Positions 1-15,880 of a stretch of 18,295 nucleotides of DNA are shown in pieces. Position numbers and translations under genes: made by a program. Location of the stretch: assembly GCA_965649115.1 (NCBI GenBank), contig CBFGJN010000039.1, forward strand, positions 1 through 18,295, in the 5' to 3' direction. This DNA is from a candidate division WOR-3 bacterium (lineage in GTDB: Bacteria > Hydrothermota > Hydrothermia > LBFQ01 > DSFT01). How positions within the stretch are numbered: position 1 is the first letter of the stretch; each line of letters opens with the position of its first letter. Below the pieces are notes generated by a model. The model saw only the letters and a list, made by a program, of their open reading frames with translations, made no database searches and was not told the DNA's origin.

Positions 1-119
1 GAATAGTTTTTATAGTTATAGTAATTTGGCTGATTGAGGGGTTGATATGGGAGGGGATGAGTTAAAATATAGTGGGGGTATCCATAGGGAAGGTAGAGGG
101 GGAATTATTGGACAAGGCA
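1..119 (+). mobile_element. Degenerate partial copy of the intergenic MITE-like repeat (right end)
   Basis: Ends in GAATTATTGGACAAGGCA (102-119), matching the right terminus of other copies (e.g. GAATTTTTGGACACAGCA ending 4183). The G-rich interior loosely resembles the internal segments of full copies. Confidence 0.7.
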
Positions 120-138
120 GACAAAGAAGCATTTTATC

Positions 139-150
139 CTTTAAAATTTT
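139..150 (+). promoter_or_regulatory. Putative -10 element CTTTAAAATTTT of a leaderless transcript
   Basis: TAAAAT at 142-147, 7 nt before ATG 155. The same motif recurs before six other transcription-unit starts. Confidence 0.65.
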
Positions 151-154
151 CACT

Positions 155-427
155 ATGCGTAGGATTGATCTTATTAGGAAGGTTTCTGCAAGGACAGGCA
201 TACCTCAAAGAGATGTTTCCCTTGTAGTAGATGCATTGTTTGAAGAAATGAAAAATTCATTAGCAAATAAAGAGGAAATACAAATAAGGGGATTTGGTAG
301 TTTTAGAGTAGTTAAGATGAAGCCAAGAAAAGCAAGGATAATAAAAACAGGGCAAGAAATAATAATTCCTCAAAGGTTTACAGTTAAATTTAAACCATCT
401 AAAAATTTATCTATAAAAGGAGGTTAG
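155..427 (+). CDS. HU/IHF family DNA-binding protein (90 aa; start ATG 155 rather than 47)
   Basis: MRRIDLIRKVS...IQIRGFGSF...KTGQEIIIP...VKFKPSKNL is the HU/IHF signature. The upstream extension lies within the repeat remnant. Confidence 0.92.
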   Translation: MRRIDLIRKVSARTGIPQRDVSLVVDALFEEMKNSLANKEEIQIRGFGSFRVVKMKPRKARIIKTGQEIIIPQRFTVKFKPSKNLSIKGG

Positions 428-431
428 AATT

Positions 432-524
432 ATGCCTTGCGGGAGGAAGAGAAAATTAAAGAAAATAAAGAGACATAAGTTTAAGAAGAGAAGAAAGAAG
501 ATGAGACATAAAAAGAAAAAGTGA
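432..524 (+). CDS. 30-aa basic protein, AURKAIP1/COX24 (bS22/mS38-like) small ribosomal protein family
   Basis: Reads MPCGRKRKLKKIKRHKFKKRRKKMRHKKKK*. It fills the HU-wecB gap exactly and its TGA overlaps the wecB GTG (GTGA). Too short for the ORF track. Confidence 0.85.
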   Translation: MPCGRKRKLKKIKRHKFKKRRKKMRHKKKK

Positions 525-1600
525 AAATTTTTTTTATAGTTGGTGCAAGGCCAAATTTTGTAAAATTAAATCCAGTATATAAAACATTTTCAAAAGAATT
601 TAAGGATTTAAAAATTGTTCATACAGGACAACATTATGATTATGAATTGGATAAAGTTTTTTTTGAAGATTTTGAAATACCTAATCCTGATTACTATTTA
701 AATGTTGGTTCTGATACTCATGCTAAACAAACTGCAAAAATCATGATCAAATTGGATGAATTATTTGAGCAAGATAAACCTGATTGGATATTTGTTTTTG
801 GAGATGTTAATTCCACAATTTCTGCAAGTTTGACAGCAATAAAAAGAAATATAAGAATTGCTCATGTTGAGGCCGGTTTAAGAAGTTTTGACTTATCAAT
901 GCCTGAAGAAGTAAATAGAATTTTGACAGATAGAATATCAAACGTCCATTTCGTTAGTGAACCCTCTGGTGTTTCAAATTTATTAAAAGAAGGAATTAAT
1001 TTAAATTCCATATATCTTGTAGGGAATACCATGATTGAGAGTTTAATAGGTGTTTTGAAAATTGTAGATAATAGGTTTAACAATTTAAGTGAAAAATTTA
1101 AAATAAAAGAAAAGAATTATGCTGTTTTGACTCTTCATAGACCATCAAATGTTGATAATTTTGAAAAATTAAAGGAAATAATGGGTATAATTGAGGAAAT
1201 TTCAAGTCATATAAAAATTATTTTTCCTGCTCACCCTAGAACACTTAAAAACCTACAATCATTTAATTTTAAAAATATCTTAATTACAAAACCTTTAAGA
1301 TATTTAGATTTTATTTCGTTATTGAAATTTTCAAAGTTTGTTCTTACAGATTCGGGAGGAATTCAAGAAGAGACAACTTATCTTAAAATTCCATGTTTAA
1401 CGCTTAGAGAAAATACAGAAAGACCAATTACAATTGAAAAAGGAACAAATGTTCTTGTTGGAACAAATAAAGAAAAAATCATTTATTATTTCAACGAAAT
1501 TATGAATAATAAATTTAAAAATGGGACTGATATTGAATTTTGGGACAATTTAGTTTCTAAAAGAATTTTAAATTCTTTTATAGGACACTGTGCCCAATAA
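521..1600 (+). CDS. wecB: UDP-N-acetylglucosamine 2-epimerase (non-hydrolysing)
   Basis: Motifs GARPNFVK, HTGQHYD, GDVNST, HVEAGLRS, MPEEVNR, TDSGGIQEE, RENTERP. Confidence 0.95.
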   Translation: MKIFFIVGARPNFVKLNPVYKTFSKEFKDLKIVHTGQHYDYELDKVFFEDFEIPNPDYYLNVGSDTHAKQTAKIMIKLDELFEQDKPDWIFVFGDVNSTISASLTAIKRNIRIAHVEAGLRSFDLSMPEEVNRILTDRISNVHFVSEPSGVSNLLKEGINLNSIYLVGNTMIESLIGVLKIVDNRFNNLSEKFKIKEKNYAVLTLHRPSNVDNFEKLKEIMGIIEEISSHIKIIFPAHPRTLKNLQSFNFKNILITKPLRYLDFISLLKFSKFVLTDSGGIQEETTYLKIPCLTLRENTERPITIEKGTNVLVGTNKEKIIYYFNEIMNNKFKNGTDIEFWDNLVSKRILNSFIGHCAQ

Positions 1601-1686
1601 ACAGTTCTAAGTGCTTGATAATCAGTACCAAAAGATTGGGTATTTATAATCGGAAGGATTAATATCAGGGTGGTTGGGACACACCA
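1586..1686 (+). mobile_element. Degenerate, internally deleted MITE copy
   Basis: Left end CACTGTGCCCAATAA, right end TGGGACACACCA. Retains an IHF-like site (1608-1620) and hairpin TAATCGGAAGGATTA. Confidence 0.7.
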
Positions 1687-1694
1687 ATAAAATT

Positions 1695-1796
1695 TGCTTT
1701 GTCCAAAATATGAGCATTTTTAAGCCGAGGGCTTAATTATAGGGTGGGTGGGAAAAATAAGAAAAATAAATGTTTCCAGAATTATCAGACACACTA
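1695..1796 (+). mobile_element. Internally deleted MITE copy
   Basis: Left TIR TGCTTTGTCCAAAA, hairpin TAAGCCGAGGGCTTA, AGGGTGGGTGGGAAAAAT, degenerate right end TTCCAGAATTATCAGACACACTA. Confidence 0.8.
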
Positions 1797-1813
1797 AAGC
1801 CATTTATCAAACT

Positions 1814-1827
1814 TGCTTTAAAATTTT
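1814..1827 (+). promoter_or_regulatory. Putative -10 element TGCTTTAAAATTTT
   Basis: TAAAAT 1819-1824; recurring motif, 27 nt upstream of ATG 1852. Confidence 0.55.
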
Positions 1828-1851
1828 CAAGGTTTTGTTTGTAAAAAGTGA

Positions 1852-3213
1852 ATGTTAGATACGAAATTTTTAACAAAGTTTCAAGTTTCATCTTTTAAGT
1901 ATATATTTTCAATGCTTTTATCTGATATCTTGGCTATTGCTATTTCAATAAGTGTTGCTTTTATCTTAAAATTTGGAGGTTCTTATTTTGAATTTCAAAA
2001 CCGAATAAAAGAAATTCTAATTATAGCATTTTTTATAATAACGATTTTCTTTATAAAACGTTTGTACACCCAAAGGAGATTATTTTATGAAGAAAGTAAG
2101 GATATTATAGAAGGCTTATTTTATTCATTTGTTCTTATTTTTAGTATTTATGCTATGACTAAAACGAAACCCGATTTTTCAAGATTATTTCTTGGTTATT
2201 CAATAATGTTTTCTGCTTTCTTTATCCCTTTATTTAGGTTTGTCACTAAACGTGTTTTGAATGGTTATTTAAAGGAAAAAATTTTAATTATTGAAGGTCC
2301 TGATAGTGATAAAATTTATGATTTTTTTAAGAAGGAGTGGTATTTAGCTTATGAACCTGTTGGCGTCGTAAAATTTTCAGAGGTTGAAAAATATAAAGGT
2401 GAAATTTTTAATGTTGTTATTCCAAGATTGCCATTTCTAAATGAGTTTTATAATGAAATATCAAATTTATCTTTGAAATTTAAGAGAATATTTTATGTTC
2501 CTGATATTTCTGGACTCTCATTTACAAACCAAATATTACATTTCTCAATAGCTCAGAATTTACCCATTTTTGAAACTTCAACTAAGTTTGACTCACAAAT
2601 AAACAGAATTGTTAAGCGAACATTTGATATTTTATTTTCATTATTAGTTATTATCGTTCTTCTTCCAGTATATATTATTATTGCTGTTTTAGTTAAAATT
2701 TCTTCAAAAGGTCCAATTTTTTATAAACACAAAAGGATAGGCAAAGATGGGAAATGTATTGAAATATATAAATTTAGGACAATGTACGAAAATGCAGATG
2801 AAATGCTTAAAAAAATTCTTGAAAATGATGAAAATCTTAGGAAAGAGTGGGAAAATTATTATAAATTGAAAAATGACCCAAGAATAACACCAATAGGTAA
2901 AATTTTAAGGAAGTTTTCATTAGACGAATTACCTCAATTTTTAAATGTCCTAAAAGGAGACCTTTCCGTCGTTGGACCAAGACCTGTTGTTAAGGATGAA
3001 CTTGAAAGATATTATGGAGATTTTAAGAAGTTTTATCTTGTTGTGAAACCTGGTATTACAGGATTATGGCAGGTTAGTGGAAGAAGTAATACAACATATG
3101 AAGATAGAGTTAAACTTGATACGATATATGTAATAAATTGGTCATTGTGGCTTGATATAATTATTATTTTAAAAACAATAAAAGTCATGATTAAAAAAGA
3201 GGGAGCTTATTAA
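1852..3213 (+). CDS. Undecaprenyl-phosphate sugar phosphotransferase (WbaP/WcaJ family)
   Basis: N-terminal TM helices plus C-terminal KRTFDI, YKFRTM, DPRITPIGKILRKFSLDELPQFLNVLKGDLSVVGPRP, KPGITGLWQVSGRS. Confidence 0.93.
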   Translation: MLDTKFLTKFQVSSFKYIFSMLLSDILAIAISISVAFILKFGGSYFEFQNRIKEILIIAFFIITIFFIKRLYTQRRLFYEESKDIIEGLFYSFVLIFSIYAMTKTKPDFSRLFLGYSIMFSAFFIPLFRFVTKRVLNGYLKEKILIIEGPDSDKIYDFFKKEWYLAYEPVGVVKFSEVEKYKGEIFNVVIPRLPFLNEFYNEISNLSLKFKRIFYVPDISGLSFTNQILHFSIAQNLPIFETSTKFDSQINRIVKRTFDILFSLLVIIVLLPVYIIIAVLVKISSKGPIFYKHKRIGKDGKCIEIYKFRTMYENADEMLKKILENDENLRKEWENYYKLKNDPRITPIGKILRKFSLDELPQFLNVLKGDLSVVGPRPVVKDELERYYGDFKKFYLVVKPGITGLWQVSGRSNTTYEDRVKLDTIYVINWSLWLDIIIILKTIKVMIKKEGAY

Positions 3214-3221
3214 GTTTTGAA

Positions 3222-3896
3222 ATGTTTTATTTTTATAAAATTATAAAGGGTTTAGTTTTTCCTCCTGGAATTTTTATTTTAATTTTTCTATTGAATTTTT
3301 TCATTATCAAAAATAAAATTTTAAGGATTATAAATTTTTTATGTGCTTTGATTTTATATGTTTTTTCAATTTCACCAACTACTGATTTTTTAAAAGAATT
3401 TTTAAAGGTAAAAAGTAATAGTAATTTTCAAAAACCGGATGTAATTTTTGTACTTGGTGCTGGACTTTCTGATGAAAGTATTTCAAGAATTGTAAAGGCA
3501 TATGAATTATACAAAATTTATAATGTTCCTATTGTTATATCAGGTTATAAAGTTGAAGCAAAAATGATGAAAAGCAAGTTGTTAATGTTTTCAATTTCAG
3601 ATAGTATGTTAATTTTAGATAGTTTGTCAAGAAACACTTATGAAAATGTTCGTAATTTCATTAAAATCGCAAAAATTAAAAATTTTAAAAATGTGATTGT
3701 TGTTAGTTCGGATTATCATTTAAAAAGAATTGAAAAAATTTTTAAGAATTCAGATTTTAATATAAAATATATTTCATCTAACCAAGTTGATTGGACAGCT
3801 AAAACAATTCTTGATATTGTTCCATCTTATGCTTCTTTTAGTAGGAATATTCGTTATTTAAATGAAATTTTAGGTTATTTTTTGCTTTTCCAATGA
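3222..3896 (+). CDS. YdcF/ElyC-like (DUF218) envelope protein
   Basis: N-terminal TM segments with PPG, VLGAG, SRNTYEN, VSSDYHLKR and terminal EILG. Confidence 0.85.
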   Translation: MFYFYKIIKGLVFPPGIFILIFLLNFFIIKNKILRIINFLCALILYVFSISPTTDFLKEFLKVKSNSNFQKPDVIFVLGAGLSDESISRIVKAYELYKIYNVPIVISGYKVEAKMMKSKLLMFSISDSMLILDSLSRNTYENVRNFIKIAKIKNFKNVIVVSSDYHLKRIEKIFKNSDFNIKYISSNQVDWTAKTILDIVPSYASFSRNIRYLNEILGYFLLFQ

Positions 3897-4015
3897 AAAA
3901 CTCATTAAGACTGATGTTAAGTTGCTCAAATTATTGATTTAATAGGGAGGCTATGCTTTCCAAAAGCAAAAGTTGGGGTATTTTAAAGCGGAAGGCTTAA
4001 TTACTAGACAAGGCA
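3883..4015 (+). mobile_element. Degenerate MITE copy (distal member of tandem pair)
   Basis: Left end TGCTTTTCCAATG, internal GGGTATTTTAAAGCGGAAGGCTTAA, right end ATTACTAGACAAGGCA. Confidence 0.7.
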
Positions 4016-4024
4016 ATTTTCTAC

Positions 4025-4183
4025 TGCTTTGTCCAATAATTATTGTTAAATCCTTGATTATCAATAACTTATAAAAGCTTTGAGGAAATTATAGATTTAA
4101 ACGGGTATTTATAAGCCGAAGGCTTTTATTTAGGGTGGGAAAATAAAGAAAAATAAATAATTCCAGAATTTTTGGACACAGCA
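4025..4183 (+). mobile_element. MITE copy with perfect 9-bp target-site duplication
   Basis: TIRs TGCTTTGTCCAATAAT / ATTTTTGGACACAGCA, flanked by ATTTTCTAC at 4016-4024 and 4184-4192. Confidence 0.9.
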
Positions 4184-4192
4184 ATTTTCTAC

Positions 4193-4206
4193 TGCTTTAA
4201 AATTTT
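4193..4206 (+). promoter_or_regulatory. Putative -10 element TGCTTTAAAATTTT of leaderless nuoA
   Basis: TAAAAT 4198-4203, 8 nt before ATG 4212; no Shine-Dalgarno. Confidence 0.65.
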
Positions 4207-4211
4207 GAACT

Positions 4212-4568
4212 ATGGAAATTTATCTTAAACTCTTTCTAATGTTAATTTTTTCCCTACTAATACCTATCGGAATGATATTTTTACAAAAGCTCCTTTCACC
4301 AAAGCCTTCCGATTATGGTGATAAATTAAAGCCTTATGAATCAGGAGAGGTGCCTATAACTGATGCTTGGATAAGATATCCAATAAGATTTTATATTATT
4401 GCTTTTCTATTTCTTCTGTTTGATATTGAAACTGCTTTTATATTTCCCTTTGCTGTTGTTTTTAAGAAACTTGGACTATTCGTAATTATTGAAACGTTTA
4501 TTTTTATTTTTGTTCTACTTATAGGATGGCTTTATTTGTATAGGAAAAAAGCTTATAAATGGGAGTAA
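4212..4568 (+). CDS. nuoA: NADH-quinone oxidoreductase subunit A
   Basis: KLKPYESGE, RFYIIAFLFLLFDIETAFIFP, three TM helices, C-terminal WE. Confidence 0.93.
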   Translation: MEIYLKLFLMLIFSLLIPIGMIFLQKLLSPKPSDYGDKLKPYESGEVPITDAWIRYPIRFYIIAFLFLLFDIETAFIFPFAVVFKKLGLFVIIETFIFIFVLLIGWLYLYRKKAYKWE

Positions 4569-4574
4569 TTAAAT

Positions 4575-5162
4575 ATGGCAAAACTTAAAATTATAAATAA
4601 AGATGGTGTAAATGTTAAAGTTTTGGAGCAAATCCATCAGAAGGAAAACAATACTTCTATTCTTGAAGATTTAATTTTTAAATTTGAGAAATTTCCTGGT
4701 GGTGAAATTTTAATTACTTCAACTTCATTATTATTAAATTGGGCAAAGGCAAAAAGTGCTTGGGGATTGACATTTGGGCTTGCATGTTGTGCTATTGAAC
4801 TTATGGCAACGTATGGTCCCGAGTTTGATGCAGAAAGGATTGGTTCAATATTGAGAGCAACTCCAAGACAAGCAGATTTGATGATTGTTGCAGGAACAGT
4901 TACAATAAAAATGGCACCAAGATTAAGAAGACTTTATGAACAAATGCCAAATCCAAAGTGGGTTATTGCTATGGGGAGTTGTGCTATAAGTGGAGATCAT
5001 TATAGAAATGTTTATTCAGTTGTTCCTGGTGTTGATCAAGTGGTTCCTGTTGATGTTTATGTTCCTGGTTGTCCTCCAACACCTGATGCTTTATTAAATG
5101 GTATTATGAAATTGGCTGAAAAAATTGAATTGGAATATAAACAAAGAAGGGGGAAAATTTGA
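4575..5162 (+). CDS. nuoB: NADH-quinone oxidoreductase subunit B
   Basis: [49 protein letters not shown]. Confidence 0.95.
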
Positions 5163-5671
5163 AATTAAAAACAAATAAAGTTTGGACATATAAAGATTTT
5201 TTAGAAGGTAAGTTAAAGGAATGGGAGGAGATTGTTGATGGAAAAAGGGTTAAAAAGATGCCTGCTTATAAAAGACATGGTAGTTTAAATGCTGAAATTG
5301 TAAGTAATTTGTCAGATATAAAAAGGAATTACAAAATTCTTTCAGGAGAAGTTGCTATTAAGATAGATGAAAAAACAATAAGGGCAACAGATATTGCTAT
5401 TGTTAGAAAAGATATTTATGAAAACAATTTTGGGGCTTTGGATTGTGAAATTGAATTAGTTATTGAGATAGAGGAGGGTCAATTAAAGAGGAGATATATA
5501 AATAAGAAGATAGATGATTATTTAAAATTTGGTATTAAGAGGCAAATATGGATATTTCTTGACAAGGAAGAAGTTTGGGATATTGATAATTTAGGGGATA
5601 AAAAAGTTTTAAGCTTTGATGATGAGATTGATATTTTTGGTGTTAAAATTAAATTAAGGAATTTGATATGA
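5159..5671 (+). CDS. Uma2 (DUF820) family PD-(D/E)XK endonuclease-like protein, copy 1
   Basis: EIVDG..MP...[28 protein letters not shown] pattern. TTG start overlaps the nuoB stop. Confidence 0.8.
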
Positions 5672-6183
5672 AGACGAAGACAAAGAAAGTTTGGACATAT
5701 AAAGACTTTTTAGAAGGTAAGTTAAAGGAATGGGAGGAGATTGTTAATGGAAAAAGGATTAAAAAGATGCCTGCTTATAAAAGACATGGTAAGCTTTTAA
5801 ACAAAATTTCAAATGTTCTAACTGAGAAATTAGAAAATGAATTTGAAATTCTTGTTGGAGAAATAGCAATAAAGATAGATGATTATAATATAAGGGCTGC
5901 TGATATTGTTTTAATAAAAAGGGAGAATTATAAAGATGATTTTGAAGCTGTCAAAGAAGTTCCCGATTTAATTATTGAAATAGAAGATAGCAAAAAATCA
6001 ATTCGCTATATTAAAAGGAAAATTTCTGATTATTTAAAATTTGGTATTAAGAGGCAGATATGGATATTTCTTGATAAAGAAGAAATTTGGGATATTGATA
6101 ATTTGGGCAATAAAAAAGTTTTAAGCTTTGATGATGAAATTGATATTTTTGGTGTTAAGTTTAAAATAAAGAATTTATTATGA
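5668..6183 (+). CDS. Uma2 (DUF820) family PD-(D/E)XK endonuclease-like protein, copy 2
   Basis: EIVNG..MP...HG, RAADIVLI, PDLIIEI, KISDYLKFGI; tandem paralog of the previous gene. Confidence 0.82.
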   Translation: MKTKTKKVWTYKDFLEGKLKEWEEIVNGKRIKKMPAYKRHGKLLNKISNVLTEKLENEFEILVGEIAIKIDDYNIRAADIVLIKRENYKDDFEAVKEVPDLIIEIEDSKKSIRYIKRKISDYLKFGIKRQIWIFLDKEEIWDIDNLGNKKVLSFDDEIDIFGVKFKIKNLL

Positions 6184-6857
6184 CAATTGATATTATTAGT
6201 GCTGTTATTAGAATTTTTGATAGTTTTTTAGAATTTGGACCTGTTAAGAAAGCAATTGAAAAGAATGTTCTAAAATTGAGATTTTTTAATTTAGTTGATT
6301 TTGCGAAGCATCCAAAAGATATTGATGATTATCCCTATGGTGGGGGTAGTGGAATGGTTATGAAAATTGAACCTATTTATAATGCTTTAATGAAAGCAAA
6401 AGAAGGTTTTTATGAAAATTATGTAATTTTATTATCACCGCAAGGAAAATTATTAAATCAGAAGAAAATTAGGGAGCTTTTGAGAAAAAAACACTTAATT
6501 TTAATTTGTGGAAGATATAAAGGTATAGATGCAAGAATTGAATTTTTCATAGATGAAGAAATATCCATCGGTGATTATATTTTATCAGGTGGGGAGATTG
6601 CTGCTATGGTTTTGATAGATGCTATTTCAAGATTATTGCCCGGTGCAGTTAATGATCCCAATTCAGTTGAAACTGATTCATTTGAAGATGGATTGTTGGA
6701 TGCCCCTTATTATACAAGACCTGTTGATTTTATGGGTTATAAAGTTCCAGATGTTTTATTAAGTGGTGATCATAAAAAAATTGAAGAGTGGAGAAAACAA
6801 GAAAGAATTAAAAGAACCTTACAAAAAAGGCCAGATTTATTAAATAAAAAAGAATGA
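6180..6857 (+). CDS. trmD: tRNA (guanine37-N1)-methyltransferase
   Basis: DDYPYGGGSGMVM, LSPQG, LICGRYKGIDAR, SIGDYILSGGE, YTRP, VPDVLLSGDH. Confidence 0.96.
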   Translation: MTIDIISAVIRIFDSFLEFGPVKKAIEKNVLKLRFFNLVDFAKHPKDIDDYPYGGGSGMVMKIEPIYNALMKAKEGFYENYVILLSPQGKLLNQKKIRELLRKKHLILICGRYKGIDARIEFFIDEEISIGDYILSGGEIAAMVLIDAISRLLPGAVNDPNSVETDSFEDGLLDAPYYTRPVDFMGYKVPDVLLSGDHKKIEEWRKQERIKRTLQKRPDLLNKKE

Positions 6858-7612
6858 CTATTCCTATTCTTTGCTATCACAATATAAGTAGAGCACCATA
6901 CTTTGGTGTTAAGAAAAGAAGCTTACATACAACACCTTTAAATTTTTATTTGCAAATGAAACTCCTTTCTATTCTTGGATATAAAGGACTTTCAATCTCT
7001 GATGCTTGGGATTACTTAATTGGTAATAAGTTTGGAAAAGTTGTTGTTTTAACATTTGATGATGGATATTATGATAACTTCAAAAATGCTTTAAAAATTC
7101 TAAAAAAATTTAATTTCACCGCTACCTTATTTGTTGTAAGTGATTTAATTGGAAGCTATAATAAGTGGTACTATAAAGAAGCTAATATGATTAAGAGGCT
7201 TATGAATGAGGATGAAATTGAAATTTGGTTAAATAATGGTATGGAAATAGGTAGTCATACAAGAACTCATCCAATTTTAACAGAATTAGATGAAGACAAA
7301 TTAATAGATGAAGTGTTTTTAAGTAAAGAGATTCTTGAAAGAAAATTTAAGGTAAAAATTAGGCATTTTTGTTATCCTTATGGTAAATATAATGATTTGG
7401 TTGTTAATTATGTTAAAAAAGCAAATTATGAAAGTGCTTGGACACTTGATAGAGGAAGATTTAGGGTTGGAGATGATTTATTCAAAGGTAAGCGAATTAA
7501 TATCCCAAAAGATGCTAATATATTGAGATTTTATTTAAAGTTATTTACTGATTATGAGGATAAAAGAGCAAAAAATTTAGCTTCTCAAATACAAATAAAT
7601 CCTTCTTGCTAA
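6854..7612 (+). CDS. Polysaccharide deacetylase (NodB/CE4 family)
   Basis: IPILCYH, LTFDDGY, EIGSHTRTH, FCYPYG. Confidence 0.9.
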   Translation: MTIPILCYHNISRAPYFGVKKRSLHTTPLNFYLQMKLLSILGYKGLSISDAWDYLIGNKFGKVVVLTFDDGYYDNFKNALKILKKFNFTATLFVVSDLIGSYNKWYYKEANMIKRLMNEDEIEIWLNNGMEIGSHTRTHPILTELDEDKLIDEVFLSKEILERKFKVKIRHFCYPYGKYNDLVVNYVKKANYESAWTLDRGRFRVGDDLFKGKRINIPKDANILRFYLKLFTDYEDKRAKNLASQIQINPSC

Positions 7613-9355
7613 TTTTTCGCCAATACCAGGGACTTTTTTTAATTCTTCAATATCCGCTTTTTTAATTTTTTCAATACTTCCAAAATATCTTAAAAGTTCT
7701 AACTTCTTTTTATCCGAAAGTCCTGGAATTGTTTCAAGAATTGAACTTTTAATTTTTGGTTCTCTTAATTTTCTTTGATAAATTAAAGCAAATCTATGAG
7801 CTTCATTTCTAATATGTTGAAGTAATCTTAATGAAAATGAGTAAATTGGAAGACTTAAAATTCTACCATTTTCTAAAATAATCTCTTCATTTCTTTTTGC
7901 AAGACCTATTGCCTTTACATTTAAATTGAATTCTTTTAATACTTTAATAGCACTTCTAAGCTGACCAAGACCACCATCAATTAAAATTAAATCAGGAAGT
8001 TCTTTATTTTCATCTATTAATCTTCTTATTCTTCTTCTTAGAACCTCTTCAATTGCTTTATAATCATCTATTTTTCCTTCTTCAATTGTTTTAATTTTAT
8101 ATCTTCTATATTCTTTCTTATTTGGCTTACCGTTTATAAATACAACAACTGAACCAACTTTCCCCTCACCATAATAGTGAGATATATCAATTGCTTCAAT
8201 TCTTTCAAGTTTTTCTAATTTTAGAATTTTTTTCAACTCCTCAATACCTGGATGTTCTCTTTTCTTTGAAATATCGTTTATAAATTTCTTTAAATTTTCT
8301 TCTGCATTTTCAATTGCTATTTTGTATATTTTCATTTCATCACTTCTTGGTTTTCTTATTTCAATTTCTCTATCTGTTCTAAATTTAATAAGATTTTTAA
8401 AATCATTAATGAAATCTTTTGAAAAATCCCAATCAATTACAATAGCTCTTATATTCAAAAAGGCACTTTCATAGTGTCTCAATAAAAATTCTTCAATTGG
8501 TTCATTAATAGAATCCGTTATTATATAATCCTCCTTTCCTACGATTCTACCATTCCTCCAAACAATTTTAGATAAACTATAATAATCATTAGCCTTAGCA
8601 TAACCAATAAAGTCTCTATCTTCCGAACCATCAATCCAAACACCATTTGAACTACCAATCTCTAATATACTTCTCAAAGCATCTCTTAATTTAATTGCTT
8701 TCTCAAATTTGAGCTCACCAACAGCTTTATCAATTTCATCTCTTAAAAACTTTTCAACATTATAAGTATTACCTTTTAGTAATTCTATTGCCATATTAAC
8801 ACTTTTTTGATAATCTTCCAAACTAACTAACTTAGCACAAGGACCCAAACACCTTCCAATATGATATTCTATACAAACCTTATGAATTTTATTTGAAGGT
8901 AATTTTAAATGACAATTTCTTATCTTAAAAATTTCCCTTGTTATTGAAAGTAAATTTCTAACAAAACTTGGGTTTACAAATGGTCCAAAGTAAATTTTGT
9001 TTTGGTCACTATTATTTCTTGTTATTTCAATTCTTGGAACTTGTTCTTTTGTAATAGCGATATATGGATATGGTTGTCCTTTTAATCTAATGTTATAGGG
9101 TGGGTCGTACTTTTTAATTAGTGATAATTCTAAAAGCAAGGCAGATTTTTCATTATCTGTAATTATGTAGTCTAACTTATTTGCTTTTTGAAGCATCTCC
9201 AAAACTTTTGGATTATTTTTCTCATTTAAATAAGAGCTTAAACGATTTCTTAAATTATAAGCCTTACCAACATAAAGAACATCACTATCTTTTTTGAATA
9301 AATAAACGCCAGGTTTTTGAGGAATTTCATTTATAATCTCTTTTAAATTTATCAT
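7577..9355 (-). CDS. uvrC: Excinuclease ABC subunit C
   Basis: GIY-YIG ([18 protein letters not shown]), Cys cluster, UVR domain, RNase H-like ([28 protein letters not shown]), C-terminal HhH. Confidence 0.96.
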
Positions 9356-10017
9356 TTCAAAAATTCAAATATACTCTTAAAAATATAATACCCGTCTTTT
9401 GAACCTTCTCCAAGAATACCTTCGCTTCTCCTTTCAGGATGAGGCATAAGTCCTAGAACATTAAATTTGGAATTAAAAATTCCCGCAATATTCATAACTG
9501 AACCATTAGGATTATCAACATATTCAAATGCAACTAATTTTCTCTGATATAATGAATTTGGTTCATCATGAAGAAATCTCCCTTCCGAGTGTGCTATTGG
9601 AATTCTAATGATTTGTCCTTTTTCAAAAAATTTCGTAAAAGGTGTATCATTATTTATAACTTTAAGTTCAACTAACTTACATATGAATTTATTATTTAAA
9701 TTTTTTGTTAGTGCTCCTTCAAGAATTTGAGCTTCTGTTAAAATTTGGAAGCCATTACATATTCCAATAACCAAACCCATTTGACTTTCTATAAATTTAT
9801 ATATACTTTCCATAACAGGGGAAAATTTTGCTATTGCACCAGCCCTTAAATAATCACCGTAAGAAAATCCACCAGGAAGAACAATCAATTTATATTTAAA
9901 TACATCTTTATCTTTATGGAAATGATAATAAGGTTCAAATCCTAAAATTTTTAGGACATGAAATACATCTCTATCACAATTTGAACCAGGAAAAACAACA
10001 ATTCCTGCTTTTATCAT
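9352..10017 (-). CDS. purQ: Phosphoribosylformylglycinamidine synthase subunit PurQ
   Basis: [51 protein letters not shown]. Confidence 0.96.
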
Positions 10018-10334
10018 ATATTAAAACCAAATGTCCTTAAAACTTCTCTGCCTTCTTCTGTTATTCTATCAATTGTCCAAGGTGGATCAAATGTAATTTC
10101 AACTTCAACATCACTTACACCTTCAATTTGTAAAAGCTTATCTTTAATTTCAAAAGCAATAGTATCGCCAATTGGACAACCAGGAGCAGTTAAGGTCATT
10201 AAAATATAAACTTTTCCATTTTCATCTATTTCAATACCATATACAAGTCCCAAATCAACGATATTAACAGGAATTTCAGGGTCATAAACAGTTTTAAGAA
10301 CCTCAATTATTTCATCTCTTGAAACCTTAGCCAT
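10014..10334 (-). CDS. Metal-sulfur cluster assembly factor (DUF59/SufT/PaaD family)
   Basis: [32 protein letters not shown]. Confidence 0.92.
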
Positions 10335-10337
10335 ATT

Positions 10338-10351
10338 AAAATTTTAAAGCA
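10338..10351 (-). promoter_or_regulatory. Putative -10 element TGCTTTAAAATTTT of a leaderless DUF59-purQ-uvrC transcript
   Basis: TAAAAT on the minus strand (10341-10346), 6 nt before the ATG at 10334. Confidence 0.65.
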
Positions 10352-10368
10352 TATTGTGTTGTGTTTAG

Positions 10369-10572
10369 TGCTGTGTCCAATAATTCGGAAATCATTTATT
10401 TTTCATATTTTTCCCACCTACCCTACGATTAAGCCTACGGCTTTAAAATGCCCATATTTCGGTTATGGGGGACGAAGCCCCCCATCAAACCCCCCGTAAA
10501 ATCAATAATTTTCTTAAATTTTTTATAAGTGGTTGATAATCAATAACTTAACAATAATTTTTGGACAAAGCA
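10369..10572 (-). mobile_element. Full-length 204-bp MITE copy with perfect 9-bp target-site duplication
   Basis: TIRs TGCTGTGTCCAATAATT / AATTTTTGGACAAAGCA, flanked by TGTGTTTAG at 10360-10368 and 10573-10581. Confidence 0.92.
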
Positions 10573-10581
10573 TGTGTTTAG

Positions 10582-10715
10582 TGCCTTGTCTAGTAATTCT
10601 GGAAACATATATTTTTCCCACCCACCCTAAATTTAAGCCTTCGGCTTATAAATGCCCATTTTTCGGCTGAGGGGGCGTAGCCCCCCTAAAATCCCCCCGA
10701 TTATTAGACAAAGCA
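10582..10715 (-). mobile_element. Internally deleted MITE copy (tandem)
   Basis: TGCCTTGTCTAGTAATT ... TTATTAGACAAAGCA; both internal hairpins retained. Confidence 0.85.
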
Positions 10716-10742
10716 AAAAAATAAATAATTTCCATAGTAAAA

Positions 10743-10809
10743 TGCTGTGTCCAAAAATTCTGTAAATACGATTATTTCTATATTTTGCCCATCCACTCCG
10801 AAAATAAGC
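10743..10809 (-). mobile_element. Truncated MITE copy (one end only)
   Basis: TGCTGTGTCCAAAAATTCTG...TTTCTATATTTTGCCC...AAATAAGC matches the corresponding end of the copy at 12478. Confidence 0.8.
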
Positions 10810-10816
10810 ATTAAAA

Positions 10817-11725
10817 CTAAGGTTTTAATATATAAACATTTCTATCTTTGTCAAGTCCTCCACTAACTATTAAATTATCAGAGCAAATAATCCACTGAGT
10901 CTTTAAATTCATTTTTTCATCTACAATACCATTAAAATTGATTTTATATATATTCTCACCATCAATTAAGACAATATAATTTTTAAGAATACAGGCAGTG
11001 TTATCACCTTCAACATAACTCATGCCTTTCTTAAATAAAATTGAAAAATTCTTTAAATTAACTAAATTCACAAATCCTCCTTCTCTGAAATTATAATGAG
11101 CAAAAAGTAAATAATCGTTATTCAAAGCAAGGAGAGAAACATAAACCCACTTTTGATTATAGAATCTTTTGACTTCATTCCCAAGACTATCGTAAATTAT
11201 TAATTTATTTGTTAAATCTGAAAAAACACAAAAATTATTATTACATAAAAACTTACCCATTCCAAGTTCAGAGATATTTCTTATTTTCTTCTCTTCCTTA
11301 TTGTTTTTTAAATCGTAAATATAAATTGTTCCATCTACAAAAATAAAAGCTTTATTTTTAAGAATTCCAAAATCAACAATATCACCACCAAGCGAAATTT
11401 TCCCATCGTTAAGTTTTACTTCATAGCCTTCCTTCTCACATCCAACTATAAATCCAATTTTTTTATTATCAAAAGATGTTTTATAATAAGATAAACAACT
11501 TCCATCAGTTCCTCCTGAAAATTCATATAGTTCATTATTATACAAAATTGTCCATTTTTGATTATTTTTCAAAATTTTTCCATCTTTACTTAAAAGGACA
11601 CTACCCCCACTTCTGAAATTTATTACGATTGTATCTTTGTATAAAAAGTTATTTGGAGATAATTCGTTTTTTAAAGTGATTTTATTTAAAAGGACAAAAG
11701 ACAAAAGAACTATGTTAATTTTCAT
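10817..11725 (-). CDS. Hypothetical, probably exported beta-rich (propeller-like) protein
   Basis: Long ORF. ATG 11725 overlaps the mazG stop (ATGA) and gives a short hydrophobic N-terminus MKINIVLLSFVLL. Repeated beta-strand-like units (IYIYDL, LIIYDS, IYKINF). No family recognised. Confidence 0.7.
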   Translation of the reverse strand: MKINIVLLSFVLLNKITLKNELSPNNFLYKDTIVINFRSGGSVLLSKDGKILKNNQKWTILYNNELYEFSGGTDGSCLSYYKTSFDNKKIGFIVGCEKEGYEVKLNDGKISLGGDIVDFGILKNKAFIFVDGTIYIYDLKNNKEEKKIRNISELGMGKFLCNNNFCVFSDLTNKLIIYDSLGNEVKRFYNQKWVYVSLLALNNDYLLFAHYNFREGGFVNLVNLKNFSILFKKGMSYVEGDNTACILKNYIVLIDGENIYKINFNGIVDEKMNLKTQWIICSDNLIVSGGLDKDRNVYILKP

Positions 11726-12447
11726 TTGACCTTTTCCCAAATTTCGTCAATTTCTTTTAGTGTCATATTTTCTATTTTTAGATTATTTTCTTTGATATAT
11801 TCAAGAACCCTATTTAAACGATTTAAGAATTTTCTTGTAGCGTTTCTTAAAGCATCTTCTGGATTTACTTTATAGTGTCTTGATAAATTAACAATAGTAA
11901 ATAATAAATCTCCAATTTCTTCAAAAATTTCATTTTCACTTTTAGCATTTTTCAATTCTTCTATTTCCTCATAAACCTTTTTTAAAACTTCTTCTTTATT
12001 CTCCCAATCAAAGCCAATTTTTTCAGCCTTTTGAGTAATTCTATATGCCAAATATAAGGCAGGCATAGAAAAATTTATATTTTTAAATAATTCTTCTCCT
12101 TTTGATTTTTCCCAATTTTCAAGAACTTCATCAGCACTATTTAATTTCTTATCAGAGAATACATGAGGATGTCTTTTAATAAGCTTATCAATAAGTTTTG
12201 AAATAACGCTATTTAAGCTTGTTAAATTTTTTTCTTGAGCAATTTTTATATGCATTAGGGCTACTAATAAAATATCACCTATTTCTTCTTCAAATTTTTG
12301 CCAATTTTTATCATCTATTGTATTTATTACTTCATAGCTTTCCTCAATTAGTTTATACTTTAAGCTTTCATTCGTTTGCTCTCTATCCCAAGGGCACTTT
12401 TCTCTTAAAATGTTTATTATCTCCCATAACCTTTGGAAATTTTCCAT
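11722..12447 (-). CDS. mazG: Nucleoside triphosphate pyrophosphohydrolase MazG (start ATG 12447)
   Basis: LREKCPWDREQT, EESYE, EEIGD, KLIKRHPHVF, GFDW, EEIGDLLF. The 28-codon upstream extension lies in the repeat and promoter. Confidence 0.93.
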   Translation of the reverse strand: MENFQRLWEIINILREKCPWDREQTNESLKYKLIEESYEVINTIDDKNWQKFEEEIGDILLVALMHIKIAQEKNLTSLNSVISKLIDKLIKRHPHVFSDKKLNSADEVLENWEKSKGEELFKNINFSMPALYLAYRITQKAEKIGFDWENKEEVLKKVYEEIEELKNAKSENEIFEEIGDLLFTIVNLSRHYKVNPEDALRNATRKFLNRLNRVLEYIKENNLKIENMTLKEIDEIWEKVK

Positions 12448-12477
12448 AAGTTCTAAAATTTTAAAGAAAAAATAATA

Positions 12478-12681
12478 AGCCTTGTTTAGTAATTCTGAAA
12501 ATATAATCATTTCTATATTTTGCCCGCCCACCCTACGAAATAAGCCTTTGGCTTATAAATGCCCATTTTTATGCCTTGGGGGGCGAAGCCCCCCTATAAT
12601 CCCCCGAAAAATCAATAGTTTTAAATGAATTTTATAAGTTATTGACAATCAAGGACTTAACATAATTTACTGGACAAAGCA
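12478..12681 (-). mobile_element. Full-length 204-bp MITE copy between divergent mazG and sucC
   Basis: Colinear with 10369-10572 and the same length; ends AGCCTTGTTTAGTAATT / TTTACTGGACAAAGCA; no intact TSD seen. Confidence 0.88.
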
Positions 12682-12715: not shown

Positions 12716-12727
12716 CTTTAAAATTTT
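12716..12727 (+). promoter_or_regulatory. Putative -10 element CTTTAAAATTTT of leaderless sucC
   Basis: TAAAAT 12719-12724, 7 nt before ATG 12732. Confidence 0.65.
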
Positions 12728-13871: not shown

Positions 13872-15001
13872 ATTTAATTTTTTTTCTTGGAATTGTTTCA
13901 CTATTTGCAGATATTACTTATGAGGGAGCAAGAAGTGTAATTGGACAATACTTATTCGTTCTTGGTTCAAGTTCATTATTTGTTGGATTTATCGCTGGGT
14001 TTGGTGAATTTATAGGTTATTTTTTAAGGATATTGTTCGGATACCTTGCTGATAAGACAAGAAATTACTGGTCATTTATGATAATTGGATATTCTTTAAA
14101 TGTCCTTTCTGTTCCACTTTTAGCATTTACTGATAATTACATAATAGCAGGAATTTTAGTTTTATTGGAGAGACTAGGAAAAGCAATTAGAACACCTTCA
14201 AGAGATACTATCATTTCATTTATTGGAAGCAAATATGGATATGGAATTTCATTTGGAATCCATGAGTTTTTAGACCAAATTGGTGCGTTAAGTGGTCCTT
14301 TACTTATTTTTGTAATCCTTTCATTATCTAAAAATGATTATAAATTAGGTTTCTTAATTCTTATTATTCCTGCTATTTTGTGCTTAATTTTTTTACTTTG
14401 GACAAAAATTAATTTTTCAAGTGTAAGGGAAATTGAAGTAAAAAGAAAAAATTATGAAAGTTTGAAAGCTAGTAAGAAATTTTGGATTTATACAATTGCT
14501 ATTGGATTTGTAAGCTTTGGCTTTATTGATTTTGCCTTGATCTCTTATCACTATAAAAGAATAAATTTATTTGAACCTAATGTAATTGTTATTTTATATT
14601 CAATTGCAATGATAACCGATGCCATTGCTTCAATAATTCTTGGGAAATTATTTGATAAATTTGGAATAAGAATTCTTATAATTTCAGTTTTTTTAACCAC
14701 TTTTTCAAATCCACTATTATTTTTTTTTAACGAAAAAACTTTAAGTTTTTTAGGAATAGTTCTTTGGGGTATAGGAATTGGAAGTCAAGAGTCAATAATG
14801 AGAGCTTATATTTCAAATATAATAAAAAAAGAGGAAAGAGCTACTGCTTTTGGAATTTTCAATTCAATATATGGATTTTCTTGGTTTATTGGTTCATTAT
14901 TAATTGGTTATCTTTATTCAATTTCATTAGTTTATATGGTTGTTGTATCATTTTTATTTCAAATTTTTGGTCTCTTGATACTATTAAAATTTATGCTTTA
15001 A
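13868..15001 (+). CDS. MFS transporter
   Basis: About 12 hydrophobic segments; GYLAD and GKLFDKFG motif-A loops; ERLGKAIRTPSRD. Confidence 0.9.
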   Translation: MNLIFFLGIVSLFADITYEGARSVIGQYLFVLGSSSLFVGFIAGFGEFIGYFLRILFGYLADKTRNYWSFMIIGYSLNVLSVPLLAFTDNYIIAGILVLLERLGKAIRTPSRDTIISFIGSKYGYGISFGIHEFLDQIGALSGPLLIFVILSLSKNDYKLGFLILIIPAILCLIFLLWTKINFSSVREIEVKRKNYESLKASKKFWIYTIAIGFVSFGFIDFALISYHYKRINLFEPNVIVILYSIAMITDAIASIILGKLFDKFGIRILIISVFLTTFSNPLLFFFNEKTLSFLGIVLWGIGIGSQESIMRAYISNIIKKEERATAFGIFNSIYGFSWFIGSLLIGYLYSISLVYMVVVSFLFQIFGLLILLKFML

Positions 15002-15006
15002 AATTT
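14994..15006 (+). promoter_or_regulatory. Putative -10 element TGCTTTAAAATTT for the tmRNA precursor
   Basis: TAAAAT 14999-15004 overlaps the MFS stop codon, 27 nt upstream of mature tmRNA. Confidence 0.5.
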
Positions 15007-15031: not shown

Positions 15032-15368
15032 GGGGGTGTACGGATTCGACGGGGGTTTGGGGCCTTCAAGGAGCATGCCCCTAGCCCAGGGTTAAAGGGC
15101 AAGCACGATAAGTGCAAACGCTAACTATGCTTTGGCTGCCTAATTGAAGGCAGCGGGCTCGTAATCTTCTACCCACCTGGAAGATTGCGAGCTTGAAATT
15201 GAGGTGGGGGTAGATAACCTTGGTCCCGGGTTATCTACCTACAACGGGACCTACGCCCTAAGGGTTTTGGCAAGCTTTCCCTTAGGGAAGAGATTAAAAG
15301 CTTGCCTAAGCATGTAGAGCCTTGGGGGCTTCAACCCTCGGACGCGGGTTCGATTCCCGCCACCTCCA
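15032..15368 (+). ncRNA. ssrA: tmRNA; tag reading frame ANANYALAA* (15114-15143)
   Basis: 5' GGGGGTGTACGGATTCGAC and 3' GACGCGGGTTCGATTCCCGCCACCTCCA form an Ala-type acceptor stem with G3:U. Tag ends YALAA; CCA tail not encoded. Confidence 0.97.
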
Positions 15369-15392
15369 TTTTGTTGAAAAGGAGGAAGTAAA

Positions 15393-15805: not shown

Positions 15806-15880
15806 GCCCTCATCGTCTAGCTTGGCCTAGGACGCCAGGTTCTCAACCTGGAAACCCGGGTTCAAATCCCGGTGGGGGCA
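15806..15880 (+). tRNA. tRNA-Glu (anticodon CTC)
   Basis: Acceptor GCCCTCA/TGGGGGC, anticodon arm CCAGG-TTCTCAA-CCTGG, T-arm CCGGG-TTCAAAT-CCCGG; CCA not encoded. Confidence 0.96.

Follow-up and report, generated by a model that had tools for sequence, protein, structure and literature searches.

A family of miniature inverted-repeat elements at fixed distances and in one orientation upstream of putative promoters in a Hydrothermota bacterium

Introduction

Only a few bacterial transposon families, all Mutator-like, are known to direct their insertion to promoters, and how promoters are found is an unsolved question. According to part of the account by Guerillot et al. 2014 (PMC3942029), insertion of TnGBS, of ISLre2 and of part of the ISKra4 group occurs in a single orientation, at 15-17 bp upstream of the -35 element of sigma-A promoters; these elements generate 8- or 9-bp repeats and carry inverted repeats (IRs) 18-39 bp long, whose terminal C is conserved. 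The orientation is owed to the unlike IRs, and the same part of that account reports no conserved target sequence (PMC3942029). Here we analyze a family of miniature transposable elements with inverted repeats (MITEs) in an uncultured hot-spring bacterium of the Hydrothermota, candidate division WOR-3. The starting point was contig CBFGJN010000039.1, the entire 18,295 bp of which are referred to as the window, where the same end of the element lies 22 or 14 nucleotides (nt) ahead of a TAAAAT hexamer at five gene starts. Our analysis makes it very probable that the family integrates at a fixed distance and in one orientation upstream of promoters that consist of a -10 element only, with a transposase acting in trans.

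The insertion-site passages of a 2024 review of prokaryotic MITEs name no MITE at a measured distance from host promoters, and for Correia elements they report no fixed distance (PMC10969869). A search for literature linking MITEs with ISLre2 returned no relevant paper; supplements of the cited papers might list related elements. In a recent genome survey of the phylum, a term search found no mention of transposons, repeats or promoters (PMC12542636).

The assembly studied, G000, is a metagenome-assembled genome (MAG) of 1.85 Mb with 27.6% G+C in 99 contigs. It was compared with four congeners, G001-G004, giving five genomes of the genus in all. The counts below rest on this one 99-contig MAG and on a few dozen loci of a second species.

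Results

The first-pass annotation of the window had claimed that one end of a MITE-like element faces a gene start at five loci, at only two distances from a TAAAAT box. All five junctions proved exact to the base: element ends at 119, 1796, 4183, 10369 and 12478 are separated from the hexamer by gaps of 22, 22, 14, 22 and 14 nt, and the identical end, termed the A end, points toward the gene at all five loci. Pfam labels the five downstream genes HU, Bac_transf (WbaP-like), NuoA, FeS_assembly_P (DUF59) and MazG.

At the HU gene the contig begins inside an element, of which only the 3' part is present (1-119, + strand); it terminates in an A end (..TTGGACAAGGCA) at 119. The promoter box CTTTAAAATTT (139-149, +) has its TAAAAT at 142-147, 22 nt past the element end, and the HU ATG follows at 155, 7 nt past the box; position 1 of the Pfam HU profile corresponds to residue 1 from that start. 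Upstream of the WbaP-like gene, a decayed older copy with approximate borders (1601-1685, +) is followed by a 9-nt spacer (1686-1694) and an internally deleted 102-bp copy (1695-1796, +). The A end of the latter, at 1796, lies 22 nt ahead of TAAAAT at 1819, within the promoter box at 1816-1826 (+). At nuoA, an older copy with a truncated B side and an approximate left border (3905-4015, +) has its A end at 4015. A complete 159-bp copy (4025-4183, +) was inserted in the 9 bp separating the older copy from the nuoA promoter and is flanked by two copies of the target duplication ATTTTCTAC, at 4016-4024 and 4184-4192. The nuoA box TGCTTTAAAATTT (4195-4205, +; TAAAAT at 4198, ATG at 4212) stands 14 nt past the element end.

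The two remaining loci lie on the minus strand. The box of the FeS_assembly_P gene (10339-10349, -; TAAAAT at 10346, ATG at 10334) is faced by a complete 204-bp copy (10369-10572, -), whose A end at 10369 is 22 nt from TAAAAT. Its target duplication TGTGTTTAG is present at 10360-10368 and 10573-10581, and the second of these doubles as the spacer to the next copy in an array: an internally deleted 134-bp copy (10582-10715, -), beyond which lies a third, truncated copy retaining the A-end part only (10743-10800, -; right border approximate). The mazG box (12456-12466, -; TAAAAT at 12463, ATG at 12447) is faced by another complete 204-bp copy (12478-12681, -), with a degenerate A-end tip at 12478, 14 nt from TAAAAT, and the B end at 12681. 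That B end is 37 nt from the promoter box of a sucC-like gene (12716-12726, +), not a preferred distance. Exact matches to the box CTTTAAAATTT number 7 in the window, where 0.47 would be expected, and none of 200 shuffles reached 7. Five of these boxes are faced by an A end, one by a B end at 37 nt, and one, upstream of the transfer-messenger RNA (tmRNA) gene, is free.

Genome-wide, the consensus of 90 full copies is 205 nt long with imperfect terminal inverted repeats (TIRs), its ends reading 5'-TGCT(T/G)TGTCCAA...TTGGACA(A/C)AGCA-3'. The 12-nt tip TGCTTTGTCCAA, allowing up to 2 mismatches, was found 917 times in the genome and 124 times in a shuffled genome. A stricter end pattern returned 750 ends, comprising 359 A-type, 232 B and 159 unclassified ends. 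A-type ends are marked by TGCTGTGTCCAA, a AATTCTGGAAA-like stretch and a CCCACCCACCCT block, B ends by TGCTTTGTCCAATAATTATTGTTAAG and a TTGATAATCAA palindrome; the two types diverge from position 5 inward. Pairing of ends gave 181 complete copies no longer than 330 bp, and their lengths have a mode at 200-219 bp (93 copies). Shorter complete copies are internal deletions, and the element contains no open reading frame (ORF). Element-like DNA makes up 95.7 kb, or 5.2% of the assembly. Among the 90 full copies, median pairwise identity was 0.785, and 21 of 4005 pairs reached at least 0.95.

Perfect 9-bp flanking duplications were present at 75 of 171 complete copies, compared to 0.7 in shuffled pairings, and 9 further copies had 9-bp flanks with one mismatch, compared to 0.5. 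Duplications of 8 bp were seen at 9 copies; no perfect flanks of 7, 10 or 11 nt were found. The termini are 5'-T...A-3'; when the border was shifted by one base the duplication was lost. Given that they have TIRs and a 9-bp target site duplication (TSD), contain no ORF and are missing from orthologous sites in relatives, the repeats are confirmed as a true MITE family, non-autonomous and mobile, as the first-pass annotation had supposed.

Two dimers in the assembly, C1:59266-59683 and C3:37424-37815, have the inner 9-mer AGAGTTAGT in common and different outer duplications; having outer duplications of their own, they appear to have moved as units. The element also holds two G+C-rich hairpins, and one copy is terminator-like at 4113-4125. 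Terminator-like sites in the window numbered 3, under the shuffle mean of 7.2, and folding one copy as RNA gave nothing remarkable (z = -2.2). Rfam models matched only the tmRNA and a tRNA in the window and nothing inside the element.

To relate ends to promoters genome-wide, the outward flank was read from each end, allowing the box up to 2 mismatches. A box was faced by 192 of the 359 A-type ends: 145 lay 21-23 nt from TAAAAT, with 108 exactly at 22 nt, and 33 lay at 14-16 nt. A further 90 ran onto the TIR of a next copy, with a 9-nt spacer in 83 of these cases, and 6 ran off the contig. B ends behaved differently: 20 of 232 faced a box, at distances spread flat over 3-49 nt, with 1 at 21-23 nt and 4 at 14-16 nt. 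The other B ends faced the TIR of a next copy (57), neither box nor copy (151) or the end of a contig (4). Among ends abutting no other copy and no contig end, 178 of 263 A ends were at a preferred distance compared to 5 of 171 B ends (Fisher p = 1e-47). The assembled junctions thus show one orientation and a distance distribution that is not flat. The preferred distances seen in the window hold genome-wide; the two single values of the first-pass annotation are in fact two narrow clusters, 21-23 and 14-16 nt.

Counted from the boxes, 167 of 737 [CG]TTTAAAATT sites had a TIR end at 14-16 or 21-23 nt. Gene-type boxes, defined by a start codon 5-12 nt behind them, were occupied in 128 of 405 cases (~32%). 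At the loci at hand in the second species, which are 83-93% identical, the same spacings were observed: 22, 22, 22, 23, 15, 14 and 12 nt.

Information content was close to zero over the duplicated 9 bp and over the 13 nt up to TAAAAT. It follows that the position of insertion is set by distance to the box, with no reading of the target sequence itself. Copies at 21 nt had 8-bp duplications in 5 of 9 cases, compared to 2 of 31 at 22 nt (p = 0.003). The shorter duplication tracks the shorter distance, and the cut on the promoter side is therefore fixed, at ~13 nt from TAAAAT.

Array spacers are repeats of the promoter-adjacent 9-mer. Neighbouring copies in arrays were no more alike (median identity 0.837, 27 pairs) than random pairs (0.841, 150 pairs), and the head-to-tail arrays therefore reflect repeated independent hits on one site. 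Tandem duplication, considered as the origin of the arrays, was excluded by the same comparison.

We also examined the box itself. The genus box CTTTAAAATTT, with its TAAAAT hexamer, is stereotyped and sits 6-11 nt ahead of start codons and just before tRNA genes: at 396 of 737 boxes, an ORF of 60 aa or more begins 6-11 nt past TAAAAT, and for 32 of 45 tRNA genes a box lies no more than 25 nt upstream. A leader containing AGGAGG follows some of the boxes. Since tRNA genes and AGGAGG leaders follow boxes, the box is a signal for transcription and not for translation. At 253 unoccupied gene-type boxes neither a -35 element nor any other upstream signal was detected, and no information was present upstream of ~-5 from TAAAAT. 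A scan of the window for canonical sigma-70 promoters (-35/-10) gave 118 sites against a shuffle mean of 107, which is no excess. The layout matches that of group C of Lomsadze 2018, in part of which a Pribnow box 6-10 nt ahead of leaderless genes is described (PMC6028130).

Each of the five genomes of the genus has 170-274 instances of the box followed by ATG. The sister genus has ~24 and other relatives have no more than 7; control patterns gave 0-10 per genome. The element was not found in G001 and G004, and these genomes have 170 and 243 box-plus-ATG sites compared to 4 and 10 for controls. Because it is present in these element-free genomes, the box is older than the element and independent of it. 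We considered that the element might carry the box itself; this was excluded, as the duplications lie in between and empty boxes exist in relatives. Genome-wide counts, empty boxes and the missing -35 signal together bear out the proposal that insertion is directed upstream of promoters that are presumably -10-dominated.

Orthologous promoters in the congeners were compared for the presence of the element. At the nuoA promoter, the element is lacking in G001, G003 and G004 and present as one copy at 14 nt in G002; in the window, the same promoter has the copy of G002 and a second one. The spacer between mazG and the sucC-like gene, which holds a copy in the window, holds none in G002 or G004, and the DUF59 promoter is empty in G001. 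The comparison of empty and filled sites that the first-pass annotation had called for therefore did find promoters that are occupied here and empty in relatives. No base-perfect empty site was obtained among these genomes, the flanks being too diverged. In contigs from four hot-spring or other sequencing runs, sequences stop at element borders, with no clean empty-site joint. The genes whose promoters are occupied include nuoA, HU and tRNA genes, which suggests that insertion is tolerated rather than disruptive.

A box-like motif also occurs inside the element, GGCTTTAAAAT(A/G)CC on the A-to-B strand (e.g. 10436-10450, +), where it overlaps a small AAGCC...GGCTT hairpin. None of 85 such internal motifs had a copy at a preferred distance, though insertion there would be harmless. 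In comparison, 165 of 597 boxes continuing with TT(T/C/A) were occupied (p = 1.5e-11). Therefore CTTTAAAAT alone is insufficient. Targeting needs either the two T's after TAAAAT as recognised DNA or a working promoter with bound polymerase.

We searched for the source of transposition activity. Long TIR-bounded intervals in G000 contained no autonomous partner with the same TIRs; a Uma2-like ORF was among their contents. One such interval, C19:23598-26445, holds a DNA methyltransferase-like ORF (717 aa) and a 238-aa ORF between two TIR-like ends. The two ORFs are probably a restriction-modification pair; together with the ends they may form a composite that carries cargo, or the ends may be two strays.

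Ten transposase families were sought in the five genus assemblies (models run: PF06782, PF00872, PF01609, NF033572, NF033529, PF00665, PF13586, PF10551 and PF12762), with one IS256 remnant in G003 as the only result. This remnant (PF00872; G003:C103, locus L033) is 58 residues long with an internal stop and has no TIR of the family. NF033529 and NF033572 matched 0 of the 5 genus genomes and MULE likewise none, and neither DDE_Tnp_1 nor DDE_Tnp_1_2 transposases were present in the genus. IS256 and DDE_Tnp_1 copies in other genera lacked the element TIR. PF06782 (UPF0236/ISLre2) had no match in 21 relatives, but it had none in 14 control genomes either and is uninformative. Nothing transposase-like was recognized by eye among ORFs with close paralogues (45 blastp pairs, at least 70% identity) or among open ORFs of at least 70 aa at 85 non-MITE contig ends. 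In a TIR scan of a genome collection, multiple matches were found, among the matches listed, only in one 'Candidatus Hydrothermia' MAG, a congener; these were MITE copies, and other matches were due to chance. In metagenome and viral collections, the inner motifs were present in 0 of 97 and 0 of 101 stretches matching the TIR.

The state of the assembly bears on this search. Across the whole assembly, a TIR is located no more than 300 nt away from 113 of the 198 contig ends. The assembly is broken at elements because copies are near-identical, and with over half of the contig ends falling in the element, the family accounts for the poor assembly of genomes in this genus. The autonomous partner may simply be unassembled, since MAGs often lose insertion sequence copies.

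Several other features of the window were noted. The free box (14996-15006, +) stands 27 nt ahead of the tmRNA (15032-15371), and a tRNA gene was identified with Rfam at 15806-15880 (+). Directly after the HU gene lies a 30-codon Lys/Arg-rich ORF (432-524, +), which may encode a very small basic protein of ribosomal type. In the nuo region, a pair of paralogous ORFs stands side by side, 170 aa (5159-5671, +) and 171 aa (5668-6183, +) in length; they have 70-92% DNA identity in three stretches and close paralogues on contig C35.

Discussion

The pattern of junctions is best explained by targeted integration of a MITE family upstream of -10-only promoters. The copies would be cut-and-paste or copy-paste MITEs mobilized by a transposase that is supplied in trans and absent from the assemblies. 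This enzyme would make staggered cuts of 9 bp, sometimes 8 bp, with the promoter-side cut ~13 nt upstream of TAAAAT in the genus-specific box CTTTAAAATT(T). The A end would then come to lie 22 nt from TAAAAT (21 nt with an 8-bp duplication), pointing at the gene, with a minor class at 14-16 nt. As insertion leaves the box intact, one and the same 9-bp site could be hit repeatedly, giving head-to-tail arrays with identical 9-mers in between. Such a site would be a safe haven, since the promoters appear to need nothing upstream of ~-5 and still serve essential genes. As to what is recognized, we lean slightly toward a transposase that reads the box DNA directly, rather than the RNA polymerase holoenzyme on the box.

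Several observations weigh against this interpretation. A transposase flanked by element ends, which the first-pass annotation had advised searching for, was not found in the assembly, where long TIR-bounded units hold ordinary genes; mobility is accordingly read from the footprints of insertion. The box is a putative -10 element of leaderless-type promoters, a role assigned from its position. Among A-type ends, 71 of 359 face neither a box nor another copy, and the 14-16 nt class admits more than one explanation. Most copies are old, leaving selection time for pruning elsewhere and thereby sharpening the picture. Finally, only assembled junctions could be counted, and the MAG breaks at elements.

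Who supplies the transposase is a more tentative matter. One possibility, to which we give limited credence, is that targeting arose independently of the Mutator-like families: a transposase yet to be found, from another superfamily or on an unassembled replicon, would read the -10-only promoter, perhaps via the holoenzyme, and integrate 13 nt upstream with single-base accuracy.

The element could instead be a derivative of the ISLre2/TnGBS/ISKra4 type, the prokaryotic Mutator-like elements, with the same recognition of sigma-A promoters, though we consider this unlikely. Oriented insertion at promoters, 8/9-bp duplications and unlike IRs, all reported for these elements in part of the literature (PMC3942029), are all seen here. 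However, no such transposase was found in the five genus assemblies, a search in which the PF06782 model missed the control genomes as well, and a MITE has no need to encode one. The distances also differ, at 22 or 14 nt from a -10 box and not 15-17 bp upstream of a -35 element; the promoters have no -35 element, and the termini are T and A in place of a conserved C. The parallel to ISLre2/TnGBS drawn in the first-pass annotation is therefore sound for the orientation and the 9-bp duplication and fails for the -35 distance and the terminal C; a Mutator-like transposase was not found in the genus assemblies.

The transposase might instead aim at a sequence resembling its own TIR tip, TGCTTT, and insert 9 bp away, the link to promoters being a by-product. 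In 83 cases an A end is indeed flanked by N9+TGCTTTGTCC, the start of the next copy. In the 14-nt class the box starts with TGC in 9 of 19 junctions, giving N9+TGCTTTAAAAT, compared to 18% of empty boxes (46/253; p = 0.005), and TGCTTT is also the TIR tip. However, in the main class at 21-23 nt the share of TGC (24/135) equals that of empty boxes, and no other conservation is seen in the 13 nt that separate the duplication from TAAAAT. This mechanism would cover the minor class at most. Even there two accounts are equally plausible: a TIR-like tip may attract insertions at 9 bp, or a deletion running from the B-end tip of a downstream copy to the CTTT of the box may have removed that copy. As an explanation for the family as a whole we regard it as improbable.

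Far less probable is insertion that was random or biased only by region, followed by purifying selection that left one harmless position. Copies are mostly old, insertions in genes would be lost, and the promoters need nothing upstream of the box, so the site would do no harm. Yet selection of this kind does not explain single-nucleotide precision, with 108 ends exactly at 22 nt, nor strict orientation, given the flat spread that B ends show within these same intergenic regions. It leaves unexplained the repeated independent hits on the same 9 bp and the absence of copies beside all 85 of the harmless box-like motifs inside elements.

That the repeats are host regulatory or structural modules (a UP-like element, insulator or terminator) spread by recombination would suit their promoter location, their two hairpins and the terminator-like copy at 4113-4125, and is very unlikely given the TIRs, the 9-bp duplications, the empty and filled sites in congeners, the dimers moving as units, terminator-like sites below the shuffle mean and Rfam matches limited to the tmRNA and tRNA.

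Few examples of targeted integration could be as clean as this one upstream of -10-only promoters: junctions number in the hundreds, a single distance dominates, the orientation is uniform and the promoters are stereotyped and lack a -35 element. The family shows that a transposon is able to target promoters to the exact base. The element being non-autonomous, the activity that reads the target is separated from the DNA that is moved. The natural replacement of all DNA upstream of -22 or -14 shows how little these promoters need. On the less certain reading that targeting arose independently of the Mutator-like families, the genome would contain a promoter-deletion series of its own, 178 promoters with only 22 or 14 native upstream bases; the minimal promoter of an uncultured lineage would be defined, and the inserted ends may have been taken into use by the host. 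Once the transposase is found, its reading of promoters can be tested directly in vitro.

Other described systems resemble the family in single respects. Correia/NEMIS and other promoter-associated MITEs are likewise small, abundant, intergenic elements with TIRs, often just upstream of genes, as described in part of the 2024 review (PMC10969869). Correia elements, according to the same source, bring their own promoters, whereas here the promoter belongs to the host and the element stands at a measured distance from it (PMC10969869). IS903, of the IS5 family, makes a 9-bp target duplication as seen here (PMC9282650, in part). Its transposase is of the DDE_Tnp_1 type, of which none was found in the genus. 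The 18-bp inverted repeat of IS903 presumably resembles the B-end tip at most positions, and IS903 is not known to be promoter-targeted. The yeast element Ty3 is a eukaryotic LTR retrotransposon with no homology to the element, whose integrase and Pol III factors position integration. The likeness to Ty3 lies in integration placed by the transcription machinery or promoter and not by the target sequence. Ty3 is cited as an analogy in the discussion of PMC3942029.

The closest match is with TnGBS, ISLre2 and ISKra4. As in the described part of those systems (PMC3942029), orientation is tied to unlike ends, the duplication is 8 or 9 bp, promoters are targeted and there is no target motif. Unlike those autonomous elements, the family here is a 205-bp MITE with TG...CA termini, and it lies 22 or 14 nt from a -10-like box in promoters without a -35 element. 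Because distance, termini and promoter type all differ, the link to ISLre2/TnGBS is at present an analogy only. Promoter targeting as such is already known; the type of promoter, the distance and the termini are what set this family apart.

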